The notes below the pieces were generated by a model that was not told the origin of the DNA, did no database searches, and was given only the letters and a program-made list of their open reading frames with translations. This document shows, one piece after another, positions 28,517 through 58,192 of a DNA stretch of 58,192 nucleotides. Both the position numbers and the translations under genes were made by a program. The stretch covers positions 1,543-59,734 of the forward strand of contig JBBITI010000016.1 in the NCBI GenBank assembly GCA_037440885.1, read 5' to 3'. How positions within the stretch are numbered: position 1 is the first letter of the stretch; each line of letters opens with the position of its first letter. The DNA comes from Dehalococcoidales bacterium (GTDB lineage Bacteria; Chloroflexota; Dehalococcoidia; Dehalococcoidales; UBA2162).

Positions 28517-28688
28517 TCTTATGCGAATTGAGGCTGCAGGGGCTCATCTTGTATTAGACAAGACTTTTGTTGGTATTTTTTGATCTTTTTATTTATAATT
28601 ACCCATCAGTTCAGCAGGCTAGGTATCGACCTCGCCTGTTCTTCACAAGGGACGGCAGTTATTATTTCATAATGCAGAGGAGGGGTTG

Positions 28689-30143: not shown

Positions 30144-30223
30144 ATTATCAAAGCCGGATGCTGGTAGTCCCTATATTCTGAGAATCTCGAATTACAGGTC
30201 GTGGAAGAACGCAAGGAGATAAG

Positions 30224-31707: not shown

Positions 31708-32955
31708 ATGACTAAAACTGCACAAGAGTTATACCAGGAACGTGAACAACGCATCATGAACGCTATCCATCTGGAACCGCTGGACCGGATTCCGATAATG
31801 GTAGCCTTCACCTATTTCCCGGCAAAATATTTCGGGATATCCTTCAAGGATGCCTGGTATGACCATGACAAATGGCTGGAAGCTACCATGAAAACTATCG
31901 TTGATCATGCCCCGGACGGTATCTGGTCTATCCAGGGGTTTAACCCCGGTGCTGCTCTGGAACACCTTGAACCGAAAAACCAGAGATGGCCGGGTTGGGG
32001 ACTGGCTGATAATAACGGACATCAGGCTATCGAAATCGAAGGCATGAAAAGTAGTGAATATGACCTGTATTTCAACGACAAATCAGACTTCGTTTTCCGT
32101 ACCATGTTCGGACGAATGATCAAGGCCGCGGAACCTTTCAAAAAACTGCCCCCTCTCTCGTCCATGACTTCAGCTTTCGGGGCATTGGCTCTTGCCGAAG
32201 CGCTTGCAGATCCTGAAGTCGCCGCGGCTATCGAGAAATTCCAGAAAGCTGGCCGTATCTACAAAGAACTGCGACCCAGGATGGTGAATTTTTACCAGGT
32301 AGCCGAGTCTCTCGGTTTTCCCTGCCCTACCGCTCCCGGAGGCGGCGCTCCTTTTGATGCCATATCCGACTGGATGCGTGGTATGCAGGGTGCCATGACA
32401 GATATGTACCGTTATCCCGAAAAGTTGCACCGGATGAACGAAGAGTTTCTTCAACGGACGCTTGCCTTACTGGATTCGGTACCCAAATTCACTAGGCCGG
32501 CCCGGGCATTGATGCCACTGCACCGTGGTTCTGACGGCTTCATGTCCTTGAAACAGTTTGAAGAATTCTACTGGCCGGGTCTCAAAACTATCATGCTGAA
32601 GATGATCGATAAGGGTATTACGCCCTGTCCGTTCCTGGAAGGTACCTGGGACCAGCGACTTGAATATCTCCTGGAGCTTCCCAAAGGCAAGGTTCTCGCC
32701 CATTTTGCTTATAGCGATATGAAAAAAGCCAAGGATGTCCTTGGTGGACACCTCTGTATCATGGGCGGCGTGCCGTCTTCTATTCTTAACGTCGGTACCG
32801 TTCAGCAGGTCGAAGAATGTGTCAAAGATATCATGCAATACTGTGGTCGGGGCGGCGGATTGATCATCGCCAATAACACCATCAACGAAGGTAAACCCGA
32901 ATGTGTCCGCGCCATGATTGAAACAGTGAAGGAATACGGCAACCGCTACCTCTAA
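31708..32955 (+). CDS. URO-D/MtaA-like family protein, paralog 2
   Basis: 415 aa. ..LEPLDRIPIMV.., ..QRWPGWG.., ..GGGLIIANNTINEGKPECVRAMIETVKEYG.. Confidence 0.75.
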   Translation: MTKTAQELYQEREQRIMNAIHLEPLDRIPIMVAFTYFPAKYFGISFKDAWYDHDKWLEATMKTIVDHAPDGIWSIQGFNPGAALEHLEPKNQRWPGWGLADNNGHQAIEIEGMKSSEYDLYFNDKSDFVFRTMFGRMIKAAEPFKKLPPLSSMTSAFGALALAEALADPEVAAAIEKFQKAGRIYKELRPRMVNFYQVAESLGFPCPTAPGGGAPFDAISDWMRGMQGAMTDMYRYPEKLHRMNEEFLQRTLALLDSVPKFTRPARALMPLHRGSDGFMSLKQFEEFYWPGLKTIMLKMIDKGITPCPFLEGTWDQRLEYLLELPKGKVLAHFAYSDMKKAKDVLGGHLCIMGGVPSSILNVGTVQQVEECVKDIMQYCGRGGGLIIANNTINEGKPECVRAMIETVKEYGNRYL

Positions 32956-33040
32956 TAATTCCCAAACCGCTATATCCGGTGTCCTCCCTGTTATGTTAAC
33001 GGTGAGGACACCGGACTCCGGTGGGAACGTTTCCTGTCTC

Positions 33041-34195
33041 TCACACAGTAACTATGTTCATCCCCGCGGAAATGTACTTGGAAACAGCCGCCTCATTGAG
33101 TTCCAGGCCTATGCCGGGGCCCTCGGGCGGGTAAAAGTAACCATCTTTATACACCTGCGGATTCTTGATGATGTCACATTCTGCCTTCCTGGTCGTATCG
33201 AATGTATTGTACATCAGCACGGGGAAGAAGACGTCGTGGTCCTGATTGCGGAACTCAGCGTCAGAAGCCAGCCAGTGTGTCTGAGCGGCTGCCTCCCATG
33301 GCCCGTTCATGGCGCCACAATACATTGCCAGACCCGCCGCCTTAGCAATGCTAGCCCACTTGATTCCCTCCGTTATTCCGCCTGATGATGCCAGTTTGGT
33401 GCCGACGATATCAGCGGCTTGTTTGTCGATAACCTGTATCAGGTCGGGAATAAGCACGCTGGATTCATGGGCGCATATCGGGGTCTTCAGCTTTTTACGC
33501 AACTGGGCTAATCCGTTGACATCCCAACACAATTGTTCATACTTAAACAGGTTAAATTCATCCATCGCTCTACCCATCATCAGCGCATCGTGGTAATTGT
33601 AACCAGCGTTGGCATCGAAGGATATCCCGATCTTATCGCCGACTGCTTTTCTGACAGCCCCCACGGTTTCTACATCACGTTCCAGTGAGCGTGCACCCCC
33701 GCCAAACCCGGTTGACTTCAATCCGATGCTTTTGACTCCGTTCGCTACTGCGTGAGCCGCTTCTTCGGCCGCTTTCCGGGGACCATCCGGCGAATTCTCG
33801 GAATGGATAAAGAAGTTGAAAATGAGCTTGTCCACGGCTTTCCCGCCAAGAAGCTGATAGACCGGCTGTTTTAGCGCTTTGCCTACCAGGTCCCATAAAG
33901 CGAAGTCTATCGTCGCCACGGCAGCCGGATATGAAACACCCCAGACCGAGCGGATGCTCCCGTTAAGTCTGGCCATGATAATCCCCCTATCCAGAGGATT
34001 AGCGCCGATGAGCACCGGCGCCCATGACTTAATCATTGCGATAACAATGTCCTGGTTCACCATCCCGGCGTCGGCGATTCCCGTGATACCTTCGTCAGTA
34101 TGGATTTTTGCGAGGAGAACACGACCGACCGCCTTTGGACCTCGCATCGGGGTAGGCAAGCTTAGGGGTATGCATTCTATCTTGGTGATTTTCAT
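33041..34195 (-). CDS. Enolase-superfamily enzyme (mandelate racemase / muconate lactonizing family)
   Basis: 384 aa. N-terminal capping domain (..MKITKIECIPL..), metal-ligand blocks ..ISFDANAG.., ..YEQ.. and ..CAHES.. SD GGAGGAAAAGG. Confidence 0.85.
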   Translation of the reverse strand: MKITKIECIPLSLPTPMRGPKAVGRVLLAKIHTDEGITGIADAGMVNQDIVIAMIKSWAPVLIGANPLDRGIIMARLNGSIRSVWGVSYPAAVATIDFALWDLVGKALKQPVYQLLGGKAVDKLIFNFFIHSENSPDGPRKAAEEAAHAVANGVKSIGLKSTGFGGGARSLERDVETVGAVRKAVGDKIGISFDANAGYNYHDALMMGRAMDEFNLFKYEQLCWDVNGLAQLRKKLKTPICAHESSVLIPDLIQVIDKQAADIVGTKLASSGGITEGIKWASIAKAAGLAMYCGAMNGPWEAAAQTHWLASDAEFRNQDHDVFFPVLMYNTFDTTRKAECDIIKNPQVYKDGYFYPPEGPGIGLELNEAAVSKYISAGMNIVTV

Positions 34196-34263
34196 TTACC
34201 TTTTCCTCCATCATGGTATGAAATTGTTGATCCAACTCTAATCTAACTCCGTTTCGCATCATG

Positions 34264-35661
34264 CTACGGAGTAACATGGCGCATCAGTTCTGAGATGTTA
34301 TCAAGTTTTTCGAGTTTCAGGAGAGCTTCAATAGCCTTCTCGGTTTTACCCCTGGTCAAAATTCTCTCGGCGTTGTGCTTGAACTTTTCCACCGCGTCCG
34401 CTTCAGTCCAGGCAACATCCGTAAAGGTGTCGCCCCGCCGGTACTTGACCTCGTTGGCAAAGGTTTTTCCCCGGGCGACAATCTCTGCTTTAGCAGGGCG
34501 GGCGGTGGGGTCTTGCTCGGCTATTCGCGCATCCGGGTATGGTCCACCGCTTACTTTAGACATGAAATTGAGTATCTTGGGATTGGTCATCGTGTCCGGG
34601 TCAACCCACTCTACCCCCCGCCGTACTCGATGAACGGCGACGGCAATGTTATAGGGCATATTAAACTGGGCAGCGGAAATGCTGCTCAGGTCATTGGACA
34701 TGCCACCGGCTCCGAATACCTTTACGCTTTCAATTTCCCCGGGCAGGATGCTATTCTGCTCGATGATGCTATAGACGCAATCCAGCACGCTGTGAAAGAC
34801 TCCGCAGCAAGGGTAAGGCTTATAGTGCAGTATGAGATTGAAGATCCATTCCTTACCGAGGTTTTCCGTCACCACTTCGGGGTAGTAGTTGGGGTATCCT
34901 ACAAAGTGACAGAACCCCCGTTGGTTTTCGTCCAGGACTGTGGTATCTCCAGTGTAGCCCATTTCAGCAAGCAGTGCTGCCGTTACCGCACCCGTGCTTT
35001 GCCAGCCCGGAACGCCATATTTTGCCATATACTTATAACCCCCGACTCCCCACCGGCTGTATGATAAGACCATACAGAGATGAGCTGCGATTCCCATGCT
35101 GTGAAGCGTTTTCTCTATGCCCAGCTTCAGTAGACGGCCGGCACCGGCAGCAGCACCGAGATTTGAATAAGCATTTCCGGTGAGTCCCCGGGTGCCGGTC
35201 CTGTTTCTCTGCAAGTCCTCAGTGGTGATGCTGTACCTGCCTACCGCCCTGGCTAATCTGGCTGAAATCTCAAGCCCAACCGCTGTAGCCAGCATTAGCT
35301 CTTTTCCCGTGGCTCCTGTGCTCTCGGCTATTGCCAGCGTGGTCGGCAAGACATAGGTGCCATCGTGCCCGCCGGCTATGATATCGCTATAGTCCAGAGT
35401 TATCATTAGTTCACCGTTGACCAGTGCCGCTGTGGAGCAAGATACTTTTTCACTCAAGCCAATCAGCGATGCTTCCGGCGGCCCTCCGTATCTCCTGCCC
35501 AGAGCCGCCATCATCTTCCCTTTTTCGGTTGAGTGGGCTGCCAGAGCAGTTCCGATGTGTTCCATGATAACCATTCTCGTATCCCGCAAGACCGACTCAG
35601 GCAGTTCTTCCCATGTTGTGTCGATGGCAAAACCGGCAAGTGCTCTCGTAATCTCGCTCAT
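34264..35661 (-). CDS. MmgE/PrpD-family protein (2-methylcitrate dehydratase fold)
   Basis: 465 aa. ..LAGFAIDTTWEELPESV.. N-terminus, and ..KPYPCCG..HS..D.. which is characteristic of the family. SD GAAGGAG. Confidence 0.85.
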   Translation of the reverse strand: MSEITRALAGFAIDTTWEELPESVLRDTRMVIMEHIGTALAAHSTEKGKMMAALGRRYGGPPEASLIGLSEKVSCSTAALVNGELMITLDYSDIIAGGHDGTYVLPTTLAIAESTGATGKELMLATAVGLEISARLARAVGRYSITTEDLQRNRTGTRGLTGNAYSNLGAAAGAGRLLKLGIEKTLHSMGIAAHLCMVLSYSRWGVGGYKYMAKYGVPGWQSTGAVTAALLAEMGYTGDTTVLDENQRGFCHFVGYPNYYPEVVTENLGKEWIFNLILHYKPYPCCGVFHSVLDCVYSIIEQNSILPGEIESVKVFGAGGMSNDLSSISAAQFNMPYNIAVAVHRVRRGVEWVDPDTMTNPKILNFMSKVSGGPYPDARIAEQDPTARPAKAEIVARGKTFANEVKYRRGDTFTDVAWTEADAVEKFKHNAERILTRGKTEKAIEALLKLEKLDNISELMRHVTP

Positions 35662-35705
35662 TTACTGCTCCTTCATATAGCTTGTGAAACTATGCAAATC
35701 AGCTA

Positions 35706-37568
35706 TTATCCCGGTCTTGGCCCCGGGGGTGGTCCACCGGGTTGTGCCCCCCCTCCCGGCCCTCCTGGTAGCGGAGATGGCGGCCAGATTTCCTCCGCCA
35801 CATCCTTCAGACCCAGCGAGAGCAACTTCGCTTTGCTTGGTTTGGTGGTTACCCAGTCCCAGTCCAGTGCCCCGAGATTCCAATAGTTCTGGGCATCAAA
35901 AGGCGCCCTTACGTCCGCAAGCGGTCCCACTTTCTGAGGAGGGTCGCCAATTATCCGGGAGTGAACTTTCAATTTCAGCGGGTTAATACCTTCGCGCAGG
36001 GTAAAGACATGTCTCATATTGGCAATCCTCTCACCACATCTCAGTAATTCATCCATAGAGCGTTCCAGGCCGGTAACTGCATTCATAAATTCAACCAGAT
36101 AATTTCTGGGTCCCGGTGGTCCCATACTGCCGAACGTACAAACACCCAGTGCATTATTCAGGAGTCTGCTAAAACCGCCCGGACCAAAACCTGCCGTATG
36201 CCGCCCGGGAGCAGCGTCCATCTGGTAACGGGCTGCTGTAGAACTCCGGTCGCCTATTCCTCCGGCCAGCTTGGGGTCGTGATAGCCGAGCTCTTGCCCG
36301 CCAATGTGAATTGCATACTGTTCCGCACCTTTCCCTATCCTCTCAGCCGCTATCTTTACTCCGTCAGCCAGGATCTCACCGAATCCTTCTCTCTTGACCA
36401 TCTTTTCGGTCATGGCGACTATGGCCCGGTGGTTGCCCCAGGTCAACTCGATGCCGCCGGTATCTTTGCCGGTTATGATTCCATTCTCATAACACTCGAT
36501 AGCAAAGGCGATGATACCACCGGCGGAGATAGTATCGATGCCGTAGCTATTACAAAGATGGTTCAGCATATTAAGTGACTCGGCGTTATGGTTGAGGCAC
36601 ATCATTCCAAAAGCCGCCTGAGTTTCATATTCTATACGGCGAACACCCGCAGGGTACCGGTATTCGCCGGTTCCTGCTTTCAAGAGTGCCTGACAGGCAA
36701 TAGGACAGTGCCAGCATGGATCATGACGGTCAAAGTTCATTATCGCCGCATCACCTGAAACCCCGACTGTGTCACTATAGTCAATAATACCGACTCCGCC
36801 CCAATTCTTGACCGGTGAATCGCCACTCAAGGCTGACCGGGCTGCCATACTGGAAGTCCCGTATTTCCGCATCCCCTCTGGCCTGAGCTCAGCCAGGTTT
36901 TCCTTCCTCAGCTGGGCTGCTTTCTCCTTATCGGCTATAGGAACCTCCATATTCCCTCTTGCTACTACCGCCTTTAGTTTCTTTGATCCCATAACTGCGC
37001 CTAGACCGCAGCGTCCGGCAACAGAACCTCTCTTATTGACGAGACAGGCGATGCGCGACAGCTTTTCTCCCGCCGGTCCGATACATGAGACGCTGCTATC
37101 CTTGCCGTATTCATGGATCAGCGTGTCTTCGGTTTCGTAGGTATCCTTGCTCCAGAGATGAGCTGCATCTTTCAGTTGGGCTTTTCCGTTGTCAATAAGC
37201 AGATAAACCGGCTTGTCCGCTATTCCATTAAAAAAGACGGCATCATAACCGGCGAACTTCAGGTGGGGTCCAAAATCACCCCCGGAATTAGCATCTCCCC
37301 ACCCTCCGGTGAGAGGCGATTTTGCCACTACCTGGTATCGTACGCCAGTAATGTTGGGAGTCCCGGTTAGCGGACCGGTAATCAAACCAAGGGTATTCTC
37401 CGGACCCAGGGCGTCTACGCCAGCTTTCTGGCGGCTGTACAGGACTCGGGCACCGATGCCGGGACCACCAATAAAATCCCGATAGAGGCTTTCTTCAGGT
37501 GTCTCTTCGGTTATCTTCCGGGTGGAAAGGTCCACAAATAACAATTTCCCCATGTATCCCTTCAGCAT
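35706..37568 (-). CDS. Aldehyde:ferredoxin oxidoreductase (tungstopterin AOR family) with a Pro/Gly-rich C-terminal tail
   Basis: ..GYMGKLLFVDLSTRKI.., ..VVAKSPLTGGWGDAN.., [4Fe-4S] ligand block ..DPCWHCPIAC.., ..GIDTISAGG.. I preferred the start at ATG 37568 (MLKGYMGK..) behind GAGGGAGAG. The ORF track starts at 37610. Confidence 0.9.
   Translation of the reverse strand: MLKGYMGKLLFVDLSTRKITEETPEESLYRDFIGGPGIGARVLYSRQKAGVDALGPENTLGLITGPLTGTPNITGVRYQVVAKSPLTGGWGDANSGGDFGPHLKFAGYDAVFFNGIADKPVYLLIDNGKAQLKDAAHLWSKDTYETEDTLIHEYGKDSSVSCIGPAGEKLSRIACLVNKRGSVAGRCGLGAVMGSKKLKAVVARGNMEVPIADKEKAAQLRKENLAELRPEGMRKYGTSSMAARSALSGDSPVKNWGGVGIIDYSDTVGVSGDAAIMNFDRHDPCWHCPIACQALLKAGTGEYRYPAGVRRIEYETQAAFGMMCLNHNAESLNMLNHLCNSYGIDTISAGGIIAFAIECYENGIITGKDTGGIELTWGNHRAIVAMTEKMVKREGFGEILADGVKIAAERIGKGAEQYAIHIGGQELGYHDPKLAGGIGDRSSTAARYQMDAAPGRHTAGFGPGGFSRLLNNALGVCTFGSMGPPGPRNYLVEFMNAVTGLERSMDELLRCGERIANMRHVFTLREGINPLKLKVHSRIIGDPPQKVGPLADVRAPFDAQNYWNLGALDWDWVTTKPSKAKLLSLGLKDVAEEIWPPSPLPGGPGGGAQPGGPPPGPRPG
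35709..35783 (-). other. Low-complexity Pro/Gly tail of AOR (25 aa)
   Basis: PPSPLPGGPGGGAQPGGPPPGPRPG* follows the normal family C-terminus (..AKLLSLGLKDVAEEIW). Confidence 0.8.
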
Positions 37569-37668
37569 TTTTCTCTCCCTCACATAATCATTTATAGATA
37601 ATATGTTCAAAAATAATTCTTGGTTGATTTAGCCACGAAAAAAAGCTATGACCATTCTCGTTTTGACA

Positions 37669-39393: not shown

Positions 39394-41451
39394 CTATCTG
39401 GTAATCCTCCATCCGTGGGCTGGACCTGCCGGACTTGTGTAAGTATAAGGTTTACCCCATGAGCCGTCATTACGGCGGCTCATTGAGGTGTTTGTATGAT
39501 TACCAACACCATTCATTATCATTATTGTGTCCGTCTTCTTTATCAGCGCTTCAAAAGAGCCGGTATAAACCACGTCTCCTTTGGAAAACGCGCTTTCTTT
39601 ATGCCAGCCATATTCGTAGGTGCCCTTCATGATTCCCGTCCGATAGTCGTAGGTTCCCTTCAAAGATAAATAGGCGTTGCTGATGGATTCTATCTGCACC
39701 TGCGCGCTGGGGATGTTGACATTCAATGTAAATTTGCCGTCAGTAACCCGGATAGGCTCCTTACTGAACAAAGTATCAGACATCGACATACCAGGAGGTG
39801 CATTCGGATTAACGGTCAGACTGAAATTACCTTTTATACCCACATATTCCCCGGCATCTGTGTTAAATCTTCCCCGGAGCATTTTCGCATATTCTTCCCG
39901 GCCGTTAGTGGAATACCAGGCTTTGATGAGGGAAATAACATCGTTGGCGGAAATTTCTCTTTCATTGGTGAAAGCGGTCAGGTTCCAGTCCTTCCTTCCG
40001 GTATCTCTCAGTATCTTCTTTGTTAAATGGAAAAGCTTGTCCAGCCGGGACTCCATATCATCATAGGCGTCATCATAGCCGTACATCGCATTTTCCAGCA
40101 GGCGGCTTTCCTGGAATTTGGTCACCAGCGCTTTGATTTTAGCCTCGTTTTTCTCGATTTCCGCCTCACTCTTGAGACGGTTATCAAACTGTTCCTTTAA
40201 ATTTTCTCTTACCTGCTCTCTTATCCTATCCAGGTTTCTATCCGTCGGCGCGGGCATTCCCATGCTTTCCCGCCTGGCTATCTCCCGGTTGACCGCTTCG
40301 GAATACAGCCGTGTGGCGATACCCCGCATCTGGTTCCAGACGGCATCAAAGTCTCCGGCATCGACATTGTAGCCGAAAAATTTGTTATCTGCGCCGTTCT
40401 TATAAGCTTCATAAGCTGCCTCTATCTCGGCATCTTTCCAGGTATCGATGTTGTACTGAACGATTTCCACCCCTGACTGTATTATCTTGGTTATCATAAA
40501 CTCTTCGGCAATCTGGGTACCCAGTATCCGGCCCGCCTCCAGATATTGCCCTTCGGCGGCGTGCCCGGCGGCCTTGGCAGCGGCTTTTATCAGGTCAGTA
40601 CCGGAATCGGAGACAAACTCCAGGGTGCTTTTCCACATGGAGTCTTCCAGGTTTTCGGCAATCTTTTTGCCGACGAATACGTTGAACGTTTCATTAAAAC
40701 CTTCGACATCGCCTTCTTGTAACTTGTCAATCAGGTCTTTGTATTCATCATCGTTAGCCAGGCTGGACATTATCTTGAACTTAATCGAATTCTCTGCGGC
40801 TTCATCATCCAGCCCCATCCGCTTTTTAAGCATGTATTCCACGGTGTTTTTCACCATCTCATCTACCACGTCGTCCGCCTTGTCCTGGGCAAGCTCACCT
40901 AATGCCTGGCTGTGGGCATACCGATTGATTCTTTCTTTGACACTGATTTTGCCGGTTCCAAACAAGCTGAAATGATAGGTCTGGTAAGCTACAATCCCAG
41001 TAGCTATATCTGTGCTTGAAGGTTTAAAATAGCGCCACCTGTTGCCAGCGTAATAGGTAACCCAGATACTCCTGGCTTTGAGGTCGGCAGCATATTTGTT
41101 TTTATCAACCTGAAAGGTCAAAATCGCCGGCTGATTCAAGCGCGTTTCGGCGCCAGCGATTTCAACCGGAGCTCCCAGCGGAGTAAATTCCTGGCTGTTG
41201 GTTGCAGGTACTTTCTTGGGTGTGTGAATGCTAACTCTGGTTGTCGAAACAAAGGCATTCGCTGGTATGGTTAACTGAAACTGATGGGTCGCCAGGTCGC
41301 CGGCTTTAGCCTCCTGCCCGGCAGCGACTACTTCCAGTGGTGGCGATATCTTATTTTCGTATTTCCAGTCTATGCCCCCCGATTGACCTGTACACGAAGA
41401 TGCTAATATAAGCACCACCAGAATGGTTATCAATACAAATGCACTGCGCAT
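39394..41451 (-). CDS. Large lipoprotein of unknown function
   Basis: 685 aa. Signal peptide with lipobox (..LILASSC, Cys+1). N-terminal beta-rich region, a central charged helical region of about 300 aa, and a C-terminal beta-rich region. I recognised no family. Confidence 0.6.
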   Translation of the reverse strand: MRSAFVLITILVVLILASSCTGQSGGIDWKYENKISPPLEVVAAGQEAKAGDLATHQFQLTIPANAFVSTTRVSIHTPKKVPATNSQEFTPLGAPVEIAGAETRLNQPAILTFQVDKNKYAADLKARSIWVTYYAGNRWRYFKPSSTDIATGIVAYQTYHFSLFGTGKISVKERINRYAHSQALGELAQDKADDVVDEMVKNTVEYMLKKRMGLDDEAAENSIKFKIMSSLANDDEYKDLIDKLQEGDVEGFNETFNVFVGKKIAENLEDSMWKSTLEFVSDSGTDLIKAAAKAAGHAAEGQYLEAGRILGTQIAEEFMITKIIQSGVEIVQYNIDTWKDAEIEAAYEAYKNGADNKFFGYNVDAGDFDAVWNQMRGIATRLYSEAVNREIARRESMGMPAPTDRNLDRIREQVRENLKEQFDNRLKSEAEIEKNEAKIKALVTKFQESRLLENAMYGYDDAYDDMESRLDKLFHLTKKILRDTGRKDWNLTAFTNEREISANDVISLIKAWYSTNGREEYAKMLRGRFNTDAGEYVGIKGNFSLTVNPNAPPGMSMSDTLFSKEPIRVTDGKFTLNVNIPSAQVQIESISNAYLSLKGTYDYRTGIMKGTYEYGWHKESAFSKGDVVYTGSFEALIKKTDTIMIMNGVGNHTNTSMSRRNDGSWGKPYTYTSPAGPAHGWRITR

Positions 41452-41863
41452 ATCCTGAACCTTTTCTCCCCTGAATTTCTATTTCATTCATCAGTTAAGA
41501 CGATTAACGGGCAACCATAATAGGATTGTATCAAAGCCGCAGTCCTCAAACAAATGCTGACAACGCTCAAAAAATGAGCTATAAATTAATACACAGTCAA
41601 GAGGGCGGAAAATCTGAAGTCAAATATTGGTAATAGGATTCCCTGAACTGGAACTGAGGTAACAGTAGGTAGTACGTTCAAAGACTTCGATCTGGTATTT
41701 ATTCTTGGCATCTAGTAAATAGGTCAATAAAGATTCGCGTCTTATCAAGCGGATGGTACTGCACATCGGACAGTTCCATAATTTTCAAATTAACCTTCTG
41801 CCCGAATTAGTGAGAATCCAGTGTAGCAGCGGAGTTGGATTTGTACCAACGGCCCCCAGATCA

Positions 41864-41898
41864 AAGCCCGAAACCGTAACTAAATCAGTTTCGGGCTT
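41864..41898 (-). terminator. Stem-loop 3' of the bicupin-like gene
   Basis: AAGCCCGAAAC-(13 nt)-GTTTCGGGCTT, an 11-bp stem. Confidence 0.4.
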
Positions 41899-41926
41899 AT
41901 TCGGTTCGCCTTGACTTAAAAGCATC

Positions 41927-43078
41927 TTACCGCTTGATTTGTAGATACAGTTCGTCACCGGGGGTGGGGTGTTTGATAGTGGACTCGTCGTTGTAGACAA
42001 GCAGAGATTCTCCGCGTACTACCTTCCGAGTGATTTTGTACCGCTTTTTGTCCTGCATATAATATGGAATGAAACAGACCGGTTTTCCGAGTCTTTTAAC
42101 GGTTACCGCACCGCGCCACATTCCGGCAGGAACAGCTATGACCCCGGGCTTATCGAAAGTCACCGCTTTCATATTGTCTGGTTCTTCTCCAAGCAGTACT
42201 TCTATCTCAGCGTCAAAGCTATCCCACGGTTCGACGACGTCCGTTCCGGAAAACCACAAAAATTCGGCTATCTGCCCATTACTCACCGGTTCGTCATCTC
42301 CAAGCTTGCACGATGCCGTAATGATGTTAAAGCTGAACTGATAACCGGTATTGGGCATATCTTCTTTGCCTTTGAAAACACATCTGGGATTCATTACTGC
42401 ATCTCCGAGTTTGTGGTAATCTTTCCTCAGTTCCATGATACAGTCTTTATATTTCCCAGCCGTCGAAGCGTTTTTGTAAAAAGGCTCCATATACTTGCGG
42501 ACATCTTCGTCTGTCTGCTTCGGATTAGTGAAGCAAAGTCCGCAGAAGGTACATTTTTTTGTCTGGTCTTTTACGCATGGTCTTGAGTTTTCTTTCTCGT
42601 AGAGCCATTCCTCTTTCCCATTTTTATTGGTATGGCTGTAAACTCTCCCCTCGGTATTTCCAACATATGTGAGCATGGTGTTCAAGCCCCTGACAACCCT
42701 TTTAAAATACACCGGGCTGTGAAATACGCCGGGAGAAGCACACACGATAGACGGCTTCGTTATATGGTATATTTCCATGGACTGTGCGGAATCACCGATA
42801 CAAAAGCCGATTTCGAATTCAGCTTCAAAGATCCTGTCAAGTTCAGCGCCGGTGAAAACGAAAAAATTATACGCCCCGTCGTGGATATGCGGAATATCCA
42901 TAGTTCCGACTTTATTGGCGACAAGGAAGCCCGTTCCAAACCGGACATCTGGAATTACATTGTCGGAATTAAAGAAAACCATTCGCGGACTGGTGTAACC
43001 GTACCAGTTATCTTTATCGTGTGTTTGTATAAACGGATTGAACTGTTTATCTAACTTACCCAACTGTAGCACCTCCAA
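41927..43078 (-). CDS. Hypothetical bicupin-like protein with a central Cys cluster
   Basis: 383 aa. Two cupin-like halves (..MDIPHIHDGAYNFFVFTG...GVFHSPVYF.. and ..AEFLWFSG...AVPAGMWRGA..) flank C-x7-C-x2-C-x2-C (..RPCVKDQTKKCTFCGLCF..). The start is ambiguous. A TTG at 43063 has better spacing to GGAGG. Confidence 0.55.
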   Translation of the reverse strand: MEVLQLGKLDKQFNPFIQTHDKDNWYGYTSPRMVFFNSDNVIPDVRFGTGFLVANKVGTMDIPHIHDGAYNFFVFTGAELDRIFEAEFEIGFCIGDSAQSMEIYHITKPSIVCASPGVFHSPVYFKRVVRGLNTMLTYVGNTEGRVYSHTNKNGKEEWLYEKENSRPCVKDQTKKCTFCGLCFTNPKQTDEDVRKYMEPFYKNASTAGKYKDCIMELRKDYHKLGDAVMNPRCVFKGKEDMPNTGYQFSFNIITASCKLGDDEPVSNGQIAEFLWFSGTDVVEPWDSFDAEIEVLLGEEPDNMKAVTFDKPGVIAVPAGMWRGAVTVKRLGKPVCFIPYYMQDKKRYKITRKVVRGESLLVYNDESTIKHPTPGDELYLQIKR

Positions 43079-51539: not shown

Positions 51540-52586
51540 TTATTTTCGCGGTCTTATCCCCCTGGCATAATTAACCCGGCCTACCCAAAATTCCGCATCA
51601 TCCTCACGCGGGGTTATCCCGATAGCTTTAATACCTGCCCTCATTGTTTGCATGGCTTGATGTGTTAGTCTGCCGCCCGGCTGTCGCAGCATACCGCCGT
51701 TGCCCCCGGCTAACCAGTCAATATACTTGATTCCCACGTAACCACCGCCACTCTGATACAAAGCTACCTTCATGGCGTGCATGTGAACCGGAGATAGTTG
51801 CCAGTAAAGTTCCATTGCTTGATTAAACTCGCCCTGCACGAACAGGTTAAATAACCTGACGATACGGGTATCGGTGGCATCTTCCGGATCATAGATAACA
51901 TATTTGCCGGGGCCCGCCCACTGCTGGTGGTACTTAGGAATGGTGATCGGCCACTCTTCGGGTTCACCGGATTGCTGCAAGATCTGGTCACCCACGAGGT
52001 GGTGCACCTGGGCCATTTTACCGAAGCCGTCGGCAATATAAATTTTTGCTGCTACGACATTCGGTATTTCAGCGATCCGGGCGACCAGTTCCGGGTTAAA
52101 AGCACTGGGGTGAAATCTCCCGAAGTCAAATATGGGCTTGGGCCAGAGATCGACACACAGATTCACCGCATCGCATATCTTCTTAGTGATCTGGTAGATG
52201 TCCTCTTCATTTTTAGCATAGAAGTTGCCCGGGTAACCAAAAAGGGTATGCGTCCCGCCGATTTTTTCGAAATGTTGAAGCAATTCTATGTCCTGTTCGA
52301 CATCATCGATTCCGGTAGTGACCGAAACCAGAATTTTACCTTTGGCTTCGTCACATACAATCTCCATGAACTTTTTACGTTCCTCAAAACTCATCACACC
52401 GATCATCGTTTCACAGAGGACGCTGAACATGCCCTTCCTGATGTTATGCCGGACATCCCATCTGATACCTTCCTCATCAAGTTCCGAGAGGTCCGGAGTA
52501 AAAGATGGCGCGATCGTGCCATCCAGTCCGTTGTAGTGTTTTTTCGCCCATGCTTTTGCTTCCGATTTGGTAAATTCTAAAGCCAT
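51540..52586 (-). CDS. DapA/DHDPS-family (class I aldolase) protein, paralog A
   Basis: 348 aa. ..IPNVVAAKI.. is a Schiff-base Lys context. The N-terminus MALEFTKSEAKAWAKKH.. is shared with the neighbouring paralog. Confidence 0.75.
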   Translation of the reverse strand: MALEFTKSEAKAWAKKHYNGLDGTIAPSFTPDLSELDEEGIRWDVRHNIRKGMFSVLCETMIGVMSFEERKKFMEIVCDEAKGKILVSVTTGIDDVEQDIELLQHFEKIGGTHTLFGYPGNFYAKNEEDIYQITKKICDAVNLCVDLWPKPIFDFGRFHPSAFNPELVARIAEIPNVVAAKIYIADGFGKMAQVHHLVGDQILQQSGEPEEWPITIPKYHQQWAGPGKYVIYDPEDATDTRIVRLFNLFVQGEFNQAMELYWQLSPVHMHAMKVALYQSGGGYVGIKYIDWLAGGNGGMLRQPGGRLTHQAMQTMRAGIKAIGITPREDDAEFWVGRVNYARGIRPRK

Positions 52587-52657: not shown

Positions 52658-53719
52658 TTAATAATGTTTCAACCTTGCCCCTTTGGAATAGTTGACTCTG
52701 CCGACAAAAAACTCTTCTTCATTATCACGAAGCGGGACTCCCAACCCTCGCAGACGAGCCCTGATTCCATCCTTTTGATAGTCGTATAACCTTTGTCCCA
52801 TTGGCTGTCGGACCATACCACCATTACCGCCAAGTAACCACTGGGCATATTTATCGGGCAAGGTATTCACGATTCCGGTATTAAAATATGAATCGGAGCT
52901 TCCCCCGATCGAAACTCCTGCCGGTACCGCACTCATGAAGTCCCAGTACATCTTCATTGCTTTATCCATCTTGCCTTCGACAAACAGGTTGAACATGTTC
53001 ACCATTTTTGGATCATCAGGAGTCTGCGATATGTCATAGGGACCAGCGCCTGCCCACTGCTGCCCGTATTGGGGAATCGTGATCGGCCAGTTGACCTGCA
53101 CGGGGTCATTCACAAGGACTCTGTCTCCGATAATTCGGAAAGACTCGACCATAAAACCGATCGGTCCGCCTCCGCATAGCTTCATGCCCACGACATTGGG
53201 GATATCGGCAATCTTGTCAAGAACGGTCAGCGGGAAATAGCTGGGATGCATATGTTTCACATGGAGTCTGCCGGCGTAAAAATTCACTGGTAGATTGGTA
53301 GCATCGCACATCATTGTGTAATGCCGGTACAGTTCTTCTTGAGATTTGGGGTAAAACTGCACCGGATGGCCGATCAACGCAAAAGTGCCGCCGACTTTCT
53401 CGAAATGGCGTAGCATTTCGATATCTTCGTCGACAGTGTTTTGCAGGATGGTCATCGACACATGTATTTTACCCCTGGCTTCATCGCATACAATCTTCAC
53501 AAATTGCTTGCGCTCTTCAAAGTTCAATGCGCTAGCTTCGACAGCGCAAAGGATACAACTCAGCTTATTCGCGATAAGGTATTGAACATCCCACCTGATA
53601 CCTTCTTCATCCAGTCCGGAAAGATCCGGGGTATATGATGCGTGAATAACGCCTTCCAGTCCCTTCAAATTTTTCTTTGCCCACTGTTTTGCTTCTTTTT
53701 TCGTAAACTCTAATGCCAT
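52658..53719 (-). CDS. DapA/DHDPS-family (class I aldolase) protein, paralog B
   Basis: Starts MALEFTKKEAKQWAKKN.. at ATG 53719 behind AAAGGAGAG. Contains ..IPNVVGMKL.. Confidence 0.75.
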   Translation of the reverse strand: MALEFTKKEAKQWAKKNLKGLEGVIHASYTPDLSGLDEEGIRWDVQYLIANKLSCILCAVEASALNFEERKQFVKIVCDEARGKIHVSMTILQNTVDEDIEMLRHFEKVGGTFALIGHPVQFYPKSQEELYRHYTMMCDATNLPVNFYAGRLHVKHMHPSYFPLTVLDKIADIPNVVGMKLCGGGPIGFMVESFRIIGDRVLVNDPVQVNWPITIPQYGQQWAGAGPYDISQTPDDPKMVNMFNLFVEGKMDKAMKMYWDFMSAVPAGVSIGGSSDSYFNTGIVNTLPDKYAQWLLGGNGGMVRQPMGQRLYDYQKDGIRARLRGLGVPLRDNEEEFFVGRVNYSKGARLKHY

Positions 53720-53765
53720 CTTGCTCTCCTTTCCCGAAGATTTTCTCGACAAACAATTATTTTTG

Positions 53766-55544
53766 TTACCGCCACTGGTCTACTGAAGCTGTCGCCATAC
53801 AGCTGAAATCTCCCGCCATCCAGAAGGCATCGGTCCCTCCCCCCACCACTAAAATCTCAACCGTAGCATTATTCAGGATCAGCGGATGCGTTGTTTTTGC
53901 TCCTGGTGGTAATTTCAACCAGGATGCAAAAGGCTCCATCCCCTTGCGGGCAGCTTCCAGGTTGTCGGGCATCGCCGCCCAATAGGTCCAAACTGACATA
54001 CGGGCATTGTCTTTTATCCAGCGGCTTAACTGCTCCTTGCTTTGAAAACCTTCATTCTTGATATCCCGAGCGGTTATCGGACTTAAAATAAAAGTGGCCT
54101 GTGTACCTGGGTTTAAGCCCAGTGTATGATGCGTGCCGGCACCACTCATTTCAAAGCTTGTCAATTGCTCTTTCATGATTTCGTGATGCGGATGTGGTTT
54201 ATATGCTGCGTAATTTAACAGGCTCCACCCGCCTAATATGTTGACCACGCTTTCCTCGGCTTTAAAACCCTTTTGTACATGCAGGGGCTGCCATCCCTCG
54301 GGTAATGCTTCTTCATTCTCAGCACAACATAAATTATTGTAGTTCGTATTATTGCCGATATCACCCAGGTAGGTTTCCCCCGCTTTTGCTCCGCCCAGGT
54401 TTTTCGAGATCAAGGTCCATGCCCGACCAATCACTGCGTTGGCTTGATTGAAAGGGCCCAGGGCGCTCAACCCGTAATTCATCTTTATCTCGTTACGTAT
54501 CGGCCCACTCGCAACAATCATCCGGCACATCGAGGTCGCCGAACTGAATAACGAAGTTACCCCTGTCGAAGCAATTGCTAATATCACCGGAAAATGCTCC
54601 GGCCTGGCTCCGGCCATGACCGCATTAACTGCGACTTTTTCTACTGTATATTCCCAGGCTTCGTGGGGCGGCGAAGGCTGCATTGTCACCGGTAATGATC
54701 TAGCCTCATTTCCAGTCCTGGTTCCTGCACCAAGCTGCCGTACGGAACGTTCCCAGGCTTCATTGGGAGGAATCGGCTGCATTTTTCCTATTATTTCCTC
54801 CGCTTTATGGCTGGTACCCTTAAGCATCTCCGCGACTCTTTCCTCTGTGGGTAGTATGATCGGCAAACCGTCGGTCCAACCATTATCCATAAAATATTGT
54901 TCCAGATTTTGTGCTGTATCCGGTGGCAACAACCGTGGATTCGGCCGGGAAATGTTACCGGCTCTTTTTTCTTCCGGAGTGGTCGGTTTCGTCAAAGCAG
55001 TAATAATACCCTCGATCACCGGCCTGTTGTTGATAGGGTCGTTACCCAACAGGTATCTGCGGTGCACCTCGATTGTCCGGTTAGCAAAAGGATGGGGTAC
55101 AAAGGTATAACGTAATTTCGGTACTCCCTTTTTATACGCAAAATTCCTGATCAGGTCCGGGAAAGCTTCGGTTATTACCGGCGCCGTCGGTAGACCCATT
55201 TGTTCCAGTATCGAACAGAAGATGGTCACCGAAGGAGCACAGGTATCCAACTGTCCGATGCCGATAACTACCCCGTGGCCTTTTTCCTTGATTTCCGCCC
55301 ATAGCTCAGGATCATTATTGAAGTAAGTGCCCACTTTGGTCCTCAGCTCCCATTTCGTACCGGGATACCTGGCAGCAAGCAGTTTCTGCATTTCCTCGAA
55401 GAATTGATGCGTATGCGGGAAATTGACGTCGACGATATATATGGTTTTACCATCCAGGTTATCTAGCCGTGGGGCCATCGGAATCAGATGTATGGGAGGG
55501 GCTGTACCTTGCGGGCTTAAGACCTTGATTAATTTTTCTGTCAT
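53766..55544 (-). CDS. Hypothetical two-domain protein: UGSC/GrdB-C-like N-domain plus an unassigned C-domain (paralog 1)
   Basis: About 592 aa from MTEKLIKVL.. (ATG 55544 behind GGGGAGG). N-domain ..APRLDNLDGKTIYIVD...VVIGIGQLDTCAPSVTIFCSILEQMGLPTAPVI.. C-domain ..GWTDGLPIILPTEERV.., ..EKVAVNAVMAGARPEHFPVILA.. Confidence 0.65.
   Translation of the reverse strand: MTEKLIKVLSPQGTAPPIHLIPMAPRLDNLDGKTIYIVDVNFPHTHQFFEEMQKLLAARYPGTKWELRTKVGTYFNNDPELWAEIKEKGHGVVIGIGQLDTCAPSVTIFCSILEQMGLPTAPVITEAFPDLIRNFAYKKGVPKLRYTFVPHPFANRTIEVHRRYLLGNDPINNRPVIEGIITALTKPTTPEEKRAGNISRPNPRLLPPDTAQNLEQYFMDNGWTDGLPIILPTEERVAEMLKGTSHKAEEIIGKMQPIPPNEAWERSVRQLGAGTRTGNEARSLPVTMQPSPPHEAWEYTVEKVAVNAVMAGARPEHFPVILAIASTGVTSLFSSATSMCRMIVASGPIRNEIKMNYGLSALGPFNQANAVIGRAWTLISKNLGGAKAGETYLGDIGNNTNYNNLCCAENEEALPEGWQPLHVQKGFKAEESVVNILGGWSLLNYAAYKPHPHHEIMKEQLTSFEMSGAGTHHTLGLNPGTQATFILSPITARDIKNEGFQSKEQLSRWIKDNARMSVWTYWAAMPDNLEAARKGMEPFASWLKLPPGAKTTHPLILNNATVEILVVGGGTDAFWMAGDFSCMATASVDQWR
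54651..54782. repeat. Imperfect 33-bp direct repeat pair, 99 bp apart, inside CDS 53766..55544
   Basis: 54651-54683 is ttcccaggcttcgtggggcggcgaaggctgcat. 54750-54782 is ttcccaggcttcattgggaggaatcggctgcat. These encode MQPSPPHEAWE and MQPIPPNEAWE. Confidence 0.85.
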
Positions 55545-55577
55545 GATCTTTACCTCCCCTTGTTTATTTAGTAGCAT

Positions 55578-55700
55578 TTGACAAGAAATAGAGCGGGTGT
55601 TAGACTCAGCCAATAGTCATATCGGATTTATATTATACGATTATCGGATATTATCATAATATATAAAATTTGGTGAATCAAGATTTTGTTCATCACTCAG
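55578..55700. promoter_or_regulatory. AT-rich divergent control region between the two UGSC-like paralogs
   Basis: Plus strand: TTGACA (55578-55583), 17 nt, TAGACT. Minus strand: TATAAT-containing stretch. ATCGGAT occurs at 55621-55627 and 55643-55649, each followed by a T/A-rich run. Confidence 0.3.
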
Positions 55701-55745
55701 GGTAACTCCTCTCCCTTAAAAAAACTAACTGTTGAAGGGTGAAAA

Positions 55746-57506
55746 ATGAAAGGAAAAGTGTCCCTCGAATGTTTAAATCCCCAGGGTATGCTTGATTATC
55801 CAGCTCCTGTAGGACTAAAGAATCCTCGTATGCAGGATTTAGCGGGTAAAAAAATCGGTATCATCTGGGACGGGAAAAAGGGCGGAGATAATTACTGTGC
55901 TGCCGTGGAAGAACTGTTGCAGCAAAAATATCCCACCGCTATTACTTTCCGGCTCGTCTGGGGAGATGCTGCTGCAGCAGAGAAAGCCAAAAAGGAGATG
56001 GATACTTTTATTTACGGTGTGGGTGATAATGGGATGGGAGGCTGGATCCAGTGCCGGCAGGTGATCGCCCTGGAAAAACTCGGTATCCCCGGTGTTTTCG
56101 TAATCGGTGATAACGCTCTTCATACTTCTAAAATGTCAGCTGAGGATGCGGGCATGCCGGCTATCCGTATCGTCACCCTGCCTTCGATTGATTACTACCC
56201 GAACCGGTCGACGGTGGCTAATATCAAGCCGTGCGCCGCCGCCTCCATCGATCAGATCATTGACGCCCTCACGCGCCCTTTAACTCCGGAAGAGAAAAAT
56301 CCCGGGATAAGAGCTTCGAATAAACCAAACGCAACCGTTGAGTTTTCTGCTGATAGTTACGAGTCCGCTCTTGAGTTATTCAACCAATCCTATCTGGACC
56401 GCCATTGGGGGGATGGACTACCTCTGGTACCCCCCACGGAATTATCGGTAAAACGGATGCTTCTGGGAACCACCCGTACCCCGGACGAAATTATCGGCCG
56501 GATACCTTACCGTAATGGTATTGCGACGGTAGAAAAAATAGCTGTCAACGCTGTCATGGCCGGAGCAAAACCAGAGTATTTACCGGTGATTATTGCCGCG
56601 GTGGAATGCCTGGCTGAAGAAAAGACTTTTACGCATATGATGAGCTCGGAAGGCTCCTTTACCATGATGATCATGGTCAGCGGGCCGATGGGCAAAGAAA
56701 TAAACATGAATTGCGGGGTGGGTTTATTAGGCCATGGCTGGCGGGCAAATAATACCATCGGCCGGGCGGTCAGATTATGCCTGATCAACTTAGGTTACCT
56801 GTGGCCGGGGGAAATCGATATGGCATTGATCGGCCGGCCATCTCCTCATACCTTTTATACTTTTTCCGAAAACCTGGAACAAAGTCCCTGGGAAACATTT
56901 AATACAGGTTTAGGCTACGGACCTGAAGACAGTTGTGTGACAGTCTCCACCGTAACCAGCGGCGGGGGCATTGGTATGAGGATATTTGGCGGCGGAGTAG
57001 TTGAACCCTGGGATACCAGGTCGGTCCTCAACGACATCGTGAAAGATATTGCCGCTGACCGGGGCACATTTGCGCAGTATAAGGTCGGGGTTGCTAATCC
57101 AACTGCCCATCTAAGAAAGCATATTATCGTCATTCATCCTGAATTTGCCATTATGCTGCAGCGTCTCGGTTTTAAGAGCAAGCAAAGCCTGCGGGATTAC
57201 CTCTATGAGAGCACCAAAGTACCTTATGAGGAACTCAGTCCCCGCGAAATCCAGGGCATCCACGACCGGATCAATACGAAAGCTCCGGATATGGACATAT
57301 TTTATCCGCACGATGCTATTCCTGAAAAACGCCTGCCAGTGATCATCGAGTCACTAAAACCAGGGGGCAAAGTCCCGGTTGTCAATCCGGAAGATATTCA
57401 TATCGTCGTATCAGGCAGTATTCCGGGATACTCATTCGGCATGTCGTATTTCCGCACCGCACATAAGACCAGGTTGATAAAAGGAGCCGCGGCGGTAAAT
57501 CAGTGA
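55746..57506 (+). CDS. Hypothetical two-domain protein: UGSC/GrdB-C-like N-domain plus an unassigned C-domain (paralog 2)
   Basis: 586 aa. ..NPRMQDLAGKKIGIIWD...FIYGVGDNGMGGWIQCRQVIALEKLGIPGVFVI.., ..HWGDGLPLVPPTELSV.., ..EKIAVNAVMAGAKPEYLPVIIA.. SD GAAGGGTG. Confidence 0.65.
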   Translation: MKGKVSLECLNPQGMLDYPAPVGLKNPRMQDLAGKKIGIIWDGKKGGDNYCAAVEELLQQKYPTAITFRLVWGDAAAAEKAKKEMDTFIYGVGDNGMGGWIQCRQVIALEKLGIPGVFVIGDNALHTSKMSAEDAGMPAIRIVTLPSIDYYPNRSTVANIKPCAAASIDQIIDALTRPLTPEEKNPGIRASNKPNATVEFSADSYESALELFNQSYLDRHWGDGLPLVPPTELSVKRMLLGTTRTPDEIIGRIPYRNGIATVEKIAVNAVMAGAKPEYLPVIIAAVECLAEEKTFTHMMSSEGSFTMMIMVSGPMGKEINMNCGVGLLGHGWRANNTIGRAVRLCLINLGYLWPGEIDMALIGRPSPHTFYTFSENLEQSPWETFNTGLGYGPEDSCVTVSTVTSGGGIGMRIFGGGVVEPWDTRSVLNDIVKDIAADRGTFAQYKVGVANPTAHLRKHIIVIHPEFAIMLQRLGFKSKQSLRDYLYESTKVPYEELSPREIQGIHDRINTKAPDMDIFYPHDAIPEKRLPVIIESLKPGGKVPVVNPEDIHIVVSGSIPGYSFGMSYFRTAHKTRLIKGAAAVNQ

Positions 57507-57579: not shown

Positions 57580-58192
57580 ATGCCATCACGATCTGAAATT
57601 GCCAAATATCGACGGGAGAATCACACCTTCAAGCAGCAAATCGAAGAACGCTCTGGTAAAACAGTAGCACAACTTTATCAGGAAAGAAGTGCCCGGTGCC
57701 GTGCTGCGGTTGAACTGCAGAAGCCAGATCGGGTTCCTTTCTTCTTTTTAATCGATGCCCAGTCATATGCCGGAGTTCCCAATGCCGCAGCATATTACGA
57801 CCCGCTTCAAATGAAGCGGGCAATGCGCCAGGCCGCGGTCGAACTGGAACCCGATATGGCCGAGGGCGGCTTCCCATCCTGTGGCGATGCCATGACCGAG
57901 CTGGATGTAAAAAATGTCCTGTGGCCGGGCGGACCGCTGCCTGCTGATGCTGGGATGCAAGCTGTCGAAGGCGAATACATGAAAGCAGATGAATACGACC
58001 TTTTTCTTAACGACCCTACGGGTTTTGTCATTCGCCGCTTTCTGCCTCGTGTCTATGGAGTATTACATCCTTTAACCAAGTTACCTCCCATGGATAGTAT
58101 GTTTGGCGGATTCGACGCTCTGACACCGATGTTTACCAGCCCGGAGTTTGTGGAAATGGCCAAACATGTAGCGGCAGCCGGAAAGAAAGTAG
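57580..58192 (+). CDS. URO-D/MtaA-like family protein, paralog 3 (partial; runs off the right edge)
   Basis: ATG 57580 behind TAGGAG. ..LQKPDRVPFFF.., ..VLWPGGPLPADAGMQAVEGEYMKADEYDLFLNDPTGFVIRRFLPRVYGVLHPLTKLPPM.. aligns block-for-block with paralogs 1 and 2. It is absent from the ORF track because no stop lies in the window. Confidence 0.75.
   Translation, partial: MPSRSEIAKYRRENHTFKQQIEERSGKTVAQLYQERSARCRAAVELQKPDRVPFFFLIDAQSYAGVPNAAAYYDPLQMKRAMRQAAVELEPDMAEGGFPSCGDAMTELDVKNVLWPGGPLPADAGMQAVEGEYMKADEYDLFLNDPTGFVIRRFLPRVYGVLHPLTKLPPMDSMFGGFDALTPMFTSPEFVEMAKHVAAAGKKV

Follow-up and report, generated by a model that had tools for sequence, protein, structure and literature searches.

A selenium-free pair of two-module UGSC paralogs in a conserved gene cassette from a Dehalococcoidales bacterium

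Introduction

In metagenomes from aquatic habitats, few selenoprotein families are as abundant as UGSC. The "UGSC-containing protein" was reported as a selenoprotein family by Zhang and Gladyshev in 2008 and has been listed since then as a major family with no assigned function; a "UGSC/Unknown_1 fusion" was already mentioned in that work and may be the architecture described below (PMC2398784). The other described systems with which we compare this locus are the selenoprotein B proteins GrdB (TIGR01917), GrdF (NF040794), GrdH (NF040795) and PrdB (TIGR04483). Here we analysed two head-to-head genes, which we call par1 and par2, in a 58,192-nucleotide stretch of DNA from a Dehalococcoidales bacterium (contig JBBITI010000016.1; the whole stretch is hereafter the window). 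An earlier note on the same DNA had described them as divergent paralogs with a UGSC/GrdB-like N-domain that had lost its selenocysteine (Sec), joined to a C-domain that it could not assign. We found that par1 and par2 are selenium-free members of two old paralogous subfamilies within a large, uncharacterised two-module family, which we define by a UGSC-type N-domain followed by, or adjoining, a domain of ~380 aa (the C-domain). Surveyed loci are given below by L numbers and proteins by P numbers.

Results

par1 and par2 are Sec-less paralogs with UGSC N-domains

Both open reading frames (ORFs) were present at exactly the coordinates that the earlier note had given, and both carried an N-terminal UGSC domain:

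53766..55544, minus strand: par1 coding sequence, ORF of 592 aa plus stop, Sec-less, par1-type subfamily of the UGSC plus C-domain family
55746..57506, plus strand: par2 coding sequence, ORF of 586 aa plus stop, Sec-less, par2-type subfamily
55062..55523, minus strand: par1 UGSC domain, residues 8-161, Pfam PF24696 at 77.5 bits
55818..56273, plus strand: par2 UGSC domain, residues 25-176, Pfam PF24696 at 56.1 bits

Both scores lie above the PF24696 gathering threshold of 25 bits, so the UGSC assignment, for which a model scan had been proposed as the check, held for both proteins. The two proteins were confirmed as paralogs by BLASTP (27% identity over ~540 aa, E 3e-39), and the shared blocks that had been listed for them, W/H-x-DGLP..PT, EK(V/I)AVNAVMAGA(R/K)PE and SGP..EI.MN, varied little or not at all across an alignment of 44 sequences from both subfamilies. 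Orthologs at 70% identity or more numbered 79 for par1 and 116 for par2, with a mean top-residue frequency of 0.85 and 0.86, respectively. Neither protein has an export signal. The par1 ATG at 55544 has a Shine-Dalgarno (SD) sequence, GGAGG, upstream; a TTG-extended reading of 615 aa reaching to 55613 finds no support in the N-termini of orthologs.

The former Sec loops are fixed in register and highly conserved

The loops that correspond to the Sec motif of the family are as follows:

55239..55262, minus strand: par1 ex-selenocysteine loop GIGQLDTC, residues 95-102, aligned with ATGH-U-STC (L021) and GVGD-U-GSC
56016..56039, plus strand: par2 ex-selenocysteine loop GVGDNGMG, residues 91-98, opposite GVGD-TGA-GSC of L004, L005 and ~40 further loci

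In par1 the Sec position is taken by Leu99 (codon TTG, 55248-55250, minus strand) and Cys102 is retained where the Cys of the UxxC motif sits, while in par2 the Sec position is Asn95 (codon AAT, 56028-56030, plus strand) and the UxxC Cys position is Gly98. The par1-type gene of L021 reads ATGH-U-STCAP where par1 has GIGQ-L-DTCAP, and in a gap-free alignment block N-GM-G of par2 and L-DT-C of par1 stand opposite U-GS-C, which fixes Leu99 and Asn95 at the Sec position. The earlier note had located both motifs to the nucleotide and had made the homology of this position the test of its own claim; relatives carry an in-frame TGA at these same columns. The redox motif U(or C)-G-S-C is present in neither protein, par1 having L-D-T-C and par2 N-G-M-G. 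The two genes likewise have no in-frame TGA and no conserved stem resembling a selenocysteine insertion sequence (SECIS), the downstream folding energy being -10.0 kcal/mol for par2 (z = +0.5) and -3.9 for par1, with a median of -10.9 in TGA genes.

Among orthologs, these loops are the most conserved stretch of both proteins. D94, G96, M97, G98, G99 and W100 of par2 were 100% conserved in the 116 orthologs, N95 was conserved in 95% (the remainder Ser) and Cys103 in 97%; in par1, G-Q-L-D-T-C102, P104, S105 and C110 were 100% conserved in the 79 orthologs. Selection thus appears to hold both former Sec loops strongly in place, with no sign of decay. The description of the pair as "redox-dead" is borne out as loss of the selenol only; par1 still holds the invariant Cys102 and Cys110.

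Relatives carry selenocysteine at the same position

The par2 C-domain was used to search a library of 1.84 billion representative proteins, and 4204 relatives (representatives) were found at E<=1e-3. Many of these are 420-490 aa long and start just past the motif position because their ORFs are split at an in-frame TGA. In the DNA of L004 and L005, a UGSC ORF of ~125 aa stops at TGA and the following ORF runs on in frame, and reading through the TGA gives ...YGVGD-U-GSCT...LEKIGKPGVF and ...YGSAD-U-GSCS...LEKLGIPVV, respectively. With TGA read as U, GVGD-U-GSC was present in ~40 genes across 85 loci, and the frame stayed open for 420-500 aa past the TGA. A census of the Sec site, which the earlier note had asked for, showed TGA in 38 of 64 surveyed relatives and Cys in none of the 64, the Sec-less genes having N, L, S, M, G or A. 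The absence of Cys suggests that loss of Sec means leaving that chemistry, not substituting for it.

A SECIS-like hairpin was found in 41 of 42 TGA genes versus 6 of 29 Sec-less homologs, and hairpin energies differed between the two groups (Mann-Whitney p = 1.7e-5). The hairpin was called by a simple rule (at least 5 bp, a G-containing loop, starting 10-25 nt downstream) and not by a covariance model, and the stem sequences vary between subfamilies. Most of the surveyed relatives are therefore predicted to be true selenoproteins. Gene callers systematically annotate them as two ORFs, a UGSC stub of ~90-125 aa and a "hypothetical protein" of ~450-490 aa (L004 1011-2882, L005 2-1849, L209 5452-7485 and many more). 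The protein lengths and architectures recorded for the family in databases are therefore misleading, with thousands of entries truncated.

The two subfamilies are likewise paired in L021, where each partner has Sec, and in L014, where Ser and Met stand instead; the L021 case indicates that the par1/par2 pairing is older than the loss of Sec. One Dehalococcoidales metagenome-assembled genome (MAG) holds a Sec-type gene (L040) alongside a Sec-less pair (L007), and missing Sec-decoding machinery therefore did not impose the loss.

A separate variant was seen on the minus strand of L016 at ~5744-5792, where FG-U-AA-U-GSC contains two in-frame TGA codons three residues apart; this may be a variant with two Sec residues, or else the true upstream end of the gene may lie at the first TGA.

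The UGSC domain and the C-domain form one unit

The C-domain is defined by the blocks DGLP..PT, A.NAVMAG..PE..P, GP...E..MN, AN..IGRA and AENE..PW, all of which are present in par1 and par2. UGSC domains fused to this domain were found in at least 37 cases in genomes. Short stand-alone Sec-UGSC genes adjoin stand-alone C-domain genes in L065, L070, L073, L074, L080 and L082, and adjacent UGSC and C-domain genes occur as well in L086, a locus found by way of an unbiased C-domain representative of 348 aa.

A metagenome scan was seeded with the UGSC Sec motif alone and covered 80 of 120 stretches, with 74 genuine sites. The pattern used TCN serine codons only, so UGSC genes with AGY serine codons, typical of Acidobacteriota, are under-sampled. 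The 74 sites were distributed as follows:

25 of 74: fused to a C-domain
27 of 74: separate C-domain gene within 2.5 kb
16 of 74: contig too short for judging
6 of 74: one side visible only

Among the motif-seeded matches listed, none of the 74 was a UGSC domain without a C-domain despite at least 1.2 kb of clear flank on each side. These results show that the UGSC domain and the C-domain are an obligate unit, fused or adjacent. Tandem C-domain proteins (about 710-740 aa; P0257, P0260) and multi-paralog arrays are common in the family, and the tandem proteins suggest that C-domains pair with each other.

The DNA pattern also matched at L096, L101, L124, L145, L159, L163 and L164, which are not UGSC genes. 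These seven sites have the common continuation UGSCTARGYSAAAFRV... and no long ORF, and look like an unrelated conserved GC-rich element with the same 20-mer.

The N-domain is remotely akin to Grd/Prd selenoprotein B

The equivalog cutoff of the NCBIfam UGSC_fam model (NF041046, cutoff 125) was not reached by par1 (52.8 bits), par2 (44.9 bits) or the N-domain alone (48.2 bits), which makes the window proteins homologs and not equivalogs. Scanned singly, 16 of 16 family N-domains matched this model (best E 2.6e-38), and subsets of the 16 matched the selenoprotein B models (GrdB 6, GrdF 7, GrdH 4, PrdB 4, various_sel_PB 2), the best GrdB match having an E value of 7e-7. All of the Grd/Prd matches fall under the curated cutoffs. 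par1 itself scored 14.7 bits against PrdB (E 0.015, cutoff 300), and the window proteins had no match to Pfam GRDB at E<=1. Such matches point to a remote relationship between the UGSC N-domain and Grd/Prd selenoprotein B. Since they come from 4-7 of the 16 N-domains and lie below the cutoffs, the term "GrdB-like" used in the earlier note is correct as remote homology and incorrect as membership of the GrdB family.

In an AlphaFold2 (AF2) model, the par2 N-domain has three layers in a (beta-alpha)5 arrangement, and the motif loop links strand 3 to helix 3. This fold differs from the thioredoxin fold proposed for the UGSC domain in 2008 (PMC2398784). Foldseek with the whole chain gave generic alpha/beta matches (flavodoxin-, REC- and SIS-like) to the N-domain only (E>=1.4e-3, TMq<=0.21). 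A PDB sequence search with an N-domain profile returned nothing meaningful, and the PDB copy searched apparently holds no solved structure of GrdB, PrdB or UGSC.

The C-domain matches no described family or fold

The C-domains of the pair occupy the following positions:

53769..54947, minus strand: par1 C-domain, residues ~200-592, no assignable family or fold, family invariants kept
56343..57503, plus strand: par2 C-domain, residues 200-586, used for the AF2 model, Foldseek and the protein library search

Pfam and NCBIfam gave no C-domain match in the window proteins or in 51 diverse members scanned singly, and PDB sequence relatives of par2 or of a C-domain profile were absent (phmmer and hmmsearch, E>=0.38). 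Modelling the C-domain alone with AF2, from an alignment of 51 sequences, gave a confident structure with a predicted local distance difference test score (pLDDT) of 88.5 and a predicted TM-score (pTM) of 0.92, and Foldseek with this model against 350,542 PDB chains gave a best E value of 0.2, with a probability of 0.11 and TM 0.21-0.26. The domain that the earlier note could not assign thus came through sequence, profile and structure searches without a relative.

Near-invariant polar residues across the whole family are D223, T231, N268, N335, R340, N348, D358, E375 and W382 (par2 numbering), and all of them are kept by par1 and par2. A Sec-Cys relay from the UGSC Sec to the Cys of "NAVMAGC" in the C-domain was considered and rejected, as Ala occupies that position in 32 of 38 Sec genes; this Cys belongs to a distant, mostly stand-alone subfamily.

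par1 carries an insertion in its C-domain:

54672..54782, minus strand: 37-aa insertion with an internal peptide repeat, MQPIPPNEAWERSV ... MQPSPPHEAWEYTV, seen as a BLASTP gap and in the alignment

The insertion duplicates the peptide that comes next and is found in cassette-type par1 orthologs, but not in par2 or in many par1-type relatives. A recent tandem duplication of DNA was rejected: TRF detected no tandem repeat, and the repeat therefore holds at the peptide level only.

The pair lies in a conserved cassette

The region between the two genes and the neighbouring genes are as follows:

55545..55745, no strand: divergent intergenic region with promoter-like hexamers on either strand, TATCGGAT copies and a palindrome
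52658..53752, minus strand: DHDPS-like protein a, PF00701 at 49 bits, Schiff-base Lys position kept (VGMK), seen in 7 loci alongside close orthologs of the pair
51540..52586, minus strand: DHDPS-like protein b, PF00701 at 48.9 bits, Lys position kept (VAAK)
57580..58192, plus strand: 5' part of a URO-D-like gene that runs off the window, 38% identical to the window URO-D protein at 31708..32952

In the intergenic region, 5 promoter-like sites were found versus 1.5 expected, all of them consensus matches only. Two exact copies of TATCGGAT at 55620 and 55642, 22 nt apart, lie within an 18-nt imperfect AT-rich palindrome (55627-55667) that overlaps the promoter-like hexamers, and this region is a candidate operator for a regulator common to both genes.

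Apart from the Schiff-base lysine position, both DHDPS-like proteins are very divergent. Orthologs of par1 and par2 (at least 75% identity) occur together with two DHDPS-like genes in L001, L002, L007, L009, L010 and L012, URO-D-family genes adjoin the orthologous pairs in L002, L006, L007 and L012, and a URO-D-like gene and DUF6282 usually belong to the cassette as well. The DapA-like and URO-D-like neighbours named in the earlier note are thus borne out, Pfam confirming the DHDPS family and close orthologs of the pair keeping the linkage. The orientation of the pair orthologs varies, being divergent, convergent or, in L007, 8.6 kb apart. No GrdA and no pyruvoyl partner of the GrdE or PrdA type was found among the 20 ORFs scanned at 28.6-58.2 kb, and the window cassette contains no thioredoxin-like, FTR-like (ferredoxin:thioredoxin reductase) or cytochrome partner.

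Elsewhere in the window, at 28686-37610, the second URO-D-family gene (31708..32952) lies beside an FAD-linked oxidase and a CCG/4Fe-4S protein (28686..31396), followed at 33041..37610 by enolase-superfamily, MmgE/PrpD and aldehyde:ferredoxin oxidoreductase genes; anaerobic catabolic functions are thus densely represented on this contig. On the minus strand at 39394-43078, two ORFs of 685 aa (39394..41451) and 383 aa (41927..43078) have no Pfam match at E<=1e-3.

The wider family is linked to transport and redox genes

Members of the family occur in Dehalococcoidia, Acidobacteriota, Thermodesulfobacteriota, Bacillota, Betaproteobacteria, Phycisphaerae and Methylomirabilota, a MAG-based taxonomy that may include mis-binned contigs. 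Recurrent neighbours are SBP_bac_5 ABC transporter genes, TctC/Bug binding proteins and FAD_binding_2 flavoproteins, and in Acidobacteriota also pyrroloquinoline quinone (PQQ) dehydrogenases, cytochrome c at a distance of 50-340 bp, a rhodanese-domain protein and a TlpA/Redoxin protein. The motif-seeded metagenome sites, on short GC-rich contigs, added only further TctC/Bug genes and an amidohydrolase-2-like gene. In this neighbour survey, DHDPS linkage was not a trait of the family as a whole.

P0282 (L209, 6001-7485) joins the C-domain to a C-terminal FTR catalytic domain (CPC...CHC) that matches the NCBIfam "FtrB family double-selenoprotein" model; it adjoins a Sec-truncated UGSC ORF and is followed by a fumarate-reductase-like flavoprotein and a 2Fe-2S protein. 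Leaders of the signal, lipoprotein or twin-arginine translocation (TAT) type are found on many Sec-type members, while others have no leader. Taken together, the neighbours, the FTR fusion and the leaders point to a redox-active unit whose substrates would be transported small molecules and which could work inside or outside the membrane. In P0301, P0325, P0362, P0367 and P0377 (780-956 aa), fn3, Big_2, FIVAR, Listeria-Bacteroides repeat or dockerin modules come after the C-domain, which implies cell-surface or cellulosome-like display of the UGSC plus C-domain unit.

The sole cultured isolate among 80 genome loci is Bacillus dakarensis Marseille-P3515T (NZ_LT707409.1), where L066 holds at ~9.9-11.8 kb a fused Sec-type member with LGD-U-GSCTSW and a SECIS-like hairpin. 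This gene stands alone, with unrelated genes around it.

Discussion

We consider it probable that the canonical unit of this family is a selenol-dependent reductase and that the window pair is a cytoplasmic heteromer working without selenium in a conserved catabolic cassette. By analogy to PrdB/GrdB with PrdA/GrdE, the C-domain of the canonical unit would bind or activate a small-molecule substrate, and partners of the thioredoxin-like, FTR-like, cytochrome or flavoprotein kind would recycle the Sec-x-x-Cys centre. In the window pair the selenol step would have been abandoned, and par1 and par2 would form a cytoplasmic heteromer whose intact C-domains still bind or transform substrate without selenium. 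The pair would act on some organic acid or ester together with the two Schiff-base (DHDPS-like) enzymes, the URO-D-like protein and the DUF6282 hydrolase-like protein. A small-molecule substrate is supported by the neighbouring SBP_bac_5 transporter and TctC/Bug genes, and the canonical redox role by the FTR fusion and by the TlpA/Redoxin, cytochrome c, rhodanese and PQQ-dehydrogenase neighbours. Of the heteromer or sub-functionalised pair suggested in the earlier note, the putative heteromer draws support from co-occurrence and tandem C-domain fusions.

Several observations weigh against this interpretation. The par2-type gene of L008 is accompanied by neither a par1-type nor a DHDPS gene in its ~6-8 kb flanks, and the par1- and par2-type genes of L007 are separated by 8.6 kb, both of which speak against a heteromer. 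Pfam and NCBIfam scans did not connect the C-domain with PrdA or GrdE, so the Grd/Prd analogy is confined to the first module. In a 2026 review the UGSC family was still uncharacterised (PMC13188914). Thiol chemistry may be possible in par1 because the invariant Cys102 and Cys110 are kept, and secreted, fn3 or dockerin members of the family fit poorly with one simple role. Finally, the 75-88% identity seen across phyla could come partly from MAG mis-binning or recent transfer.

Alternatively, par1 and par2 could be independent, sub-functionalised proteins acting on other substrates or steps, adjacent through shared regulation only. Their identity of only 27% would fit, as would the variable orientation and spacing of the orthologs, the lone par2-type gene of L008 and the many distant relatives that are single. 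We consider this unlikely, as 6 of 8 informative close-ortholog loci contain both subfamilies, as do L014 and L021, and the family is rich in multi-paralog arrays and tandem C-domain fusions.

A still less likely explanation is that the pair remains a redox enzyme through Cys, with par1 Cys102/Cys110 as a thiol/disulfide centre and par2 as its non-redox partner. The complete conservation of both cysteines in the 79 par1-type orthologs, the 97% conservation of par2 Cys103 and the redox links of the canonical family agree with it. The nucleophile position, however, is Leu or Asn in the pair and Cys in none of the 64 surveyed genes, CX7C is no recognised redox motif in the UGSC domain, and a thioredoxin-like, FTR-like or cytochrome partner is absent from the window cassette.

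It is improbable that the two proteins are non-catalytic substrate-binding, scaffolding or regulatory subunits of the paired DHDPS-like enzymes next to them. Such a role would be consistent with the loss of the catalytic Sec, with the strict link to two DHDPS-like genes in the cassette and with the flavodoxin/REC-like fold of the N-domain, a fold that binding and regulatory modules typically have. Set against this, the active-site-like residues D223, T231, N268, N335, R340 and E375 are invariant family-wide, the window proteins included, and the wider family is not DHDPS-linked. That the genes are decaying relics, pseudogenised selenoprotein genes with TGA mutated to sense, is effectively refuted by conservation: Sec is lost in both and the resolving Cys in par2, but the ORFs are intact and full-length with good SD sites, and the ex-Sec loops are the most conserved part of the proteins across 116 and 79 orthologs.

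Returning to the selenium-free heteromer, a broader and more tentative proposal can be made. The C-domain might be a new fold and the long-missing partner of UGSC, the two together forming a new class of selenol-dependent reductase analogous to, yet distinct from, glycine and proline reductase; the Asn/Leu pair of the window might then be its selenium-independent heteromeric descendant, with non-reductive chemistry in a dedicated catabolic cassette.

What is new here is the Sec-less Asn/Leu paralog pair with its cassette, the obligate partnership of UGSC with the C-domain, a C-domain without a known fold and the scale of mis-annotation by split ORFs. A literature search for PF24696 and DUF6282 found no papers. 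In the window, par1 and par2 should be annotated not as hypothetical proteins but as selenium-free UGSC two-module members. Sec-less pairs with a whole C-domain and an invariant, remodelled loop are a natural experiment that separates the role of the C-domain from that of the selenol. Experimental handles are offered by the cultured Bacillus dakarensis and by solute-binding-protein neighbours with screenable ligands, and the compact cassette (two paralogs, two DHDPS-like genes, URO-D-like and DUF6282) suits heterologous expression.

Compared with the UGSC family (PF24696, NF041046), the window proteins have the same N-domain layout and LE..G.P block, but they lack U, their loops read N-GM-G and L-DT-C instead of U-GSC, and they are ~590 aa long rather than ~150-200 aa. 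Family N-domains bear a remote likeness to GrdB, GrdF, GrdH and PrdB around the UxxC centre, and the Grd/Prd systems and the UGSC family are alike in their two-part logic of a Sec module with a larger partner, whereas the window proteins have no Sec and score far under the Grd/Prd family cutoffs. The Sec-type fusions (L004, L028, L066) have the same two-domain architecture and C-domain motifs as the window pair, with 40-54% identity to par2. They differ from it in their TGA-encoded Sec and SECIS-like hairpin, in the signal, lipoprotein or TAT leaders that many of them carry, and in gene contexts made up of transporters, cytochrome c, TlpA-like proteins, PQQ dehydrogenases and flavoproteins.

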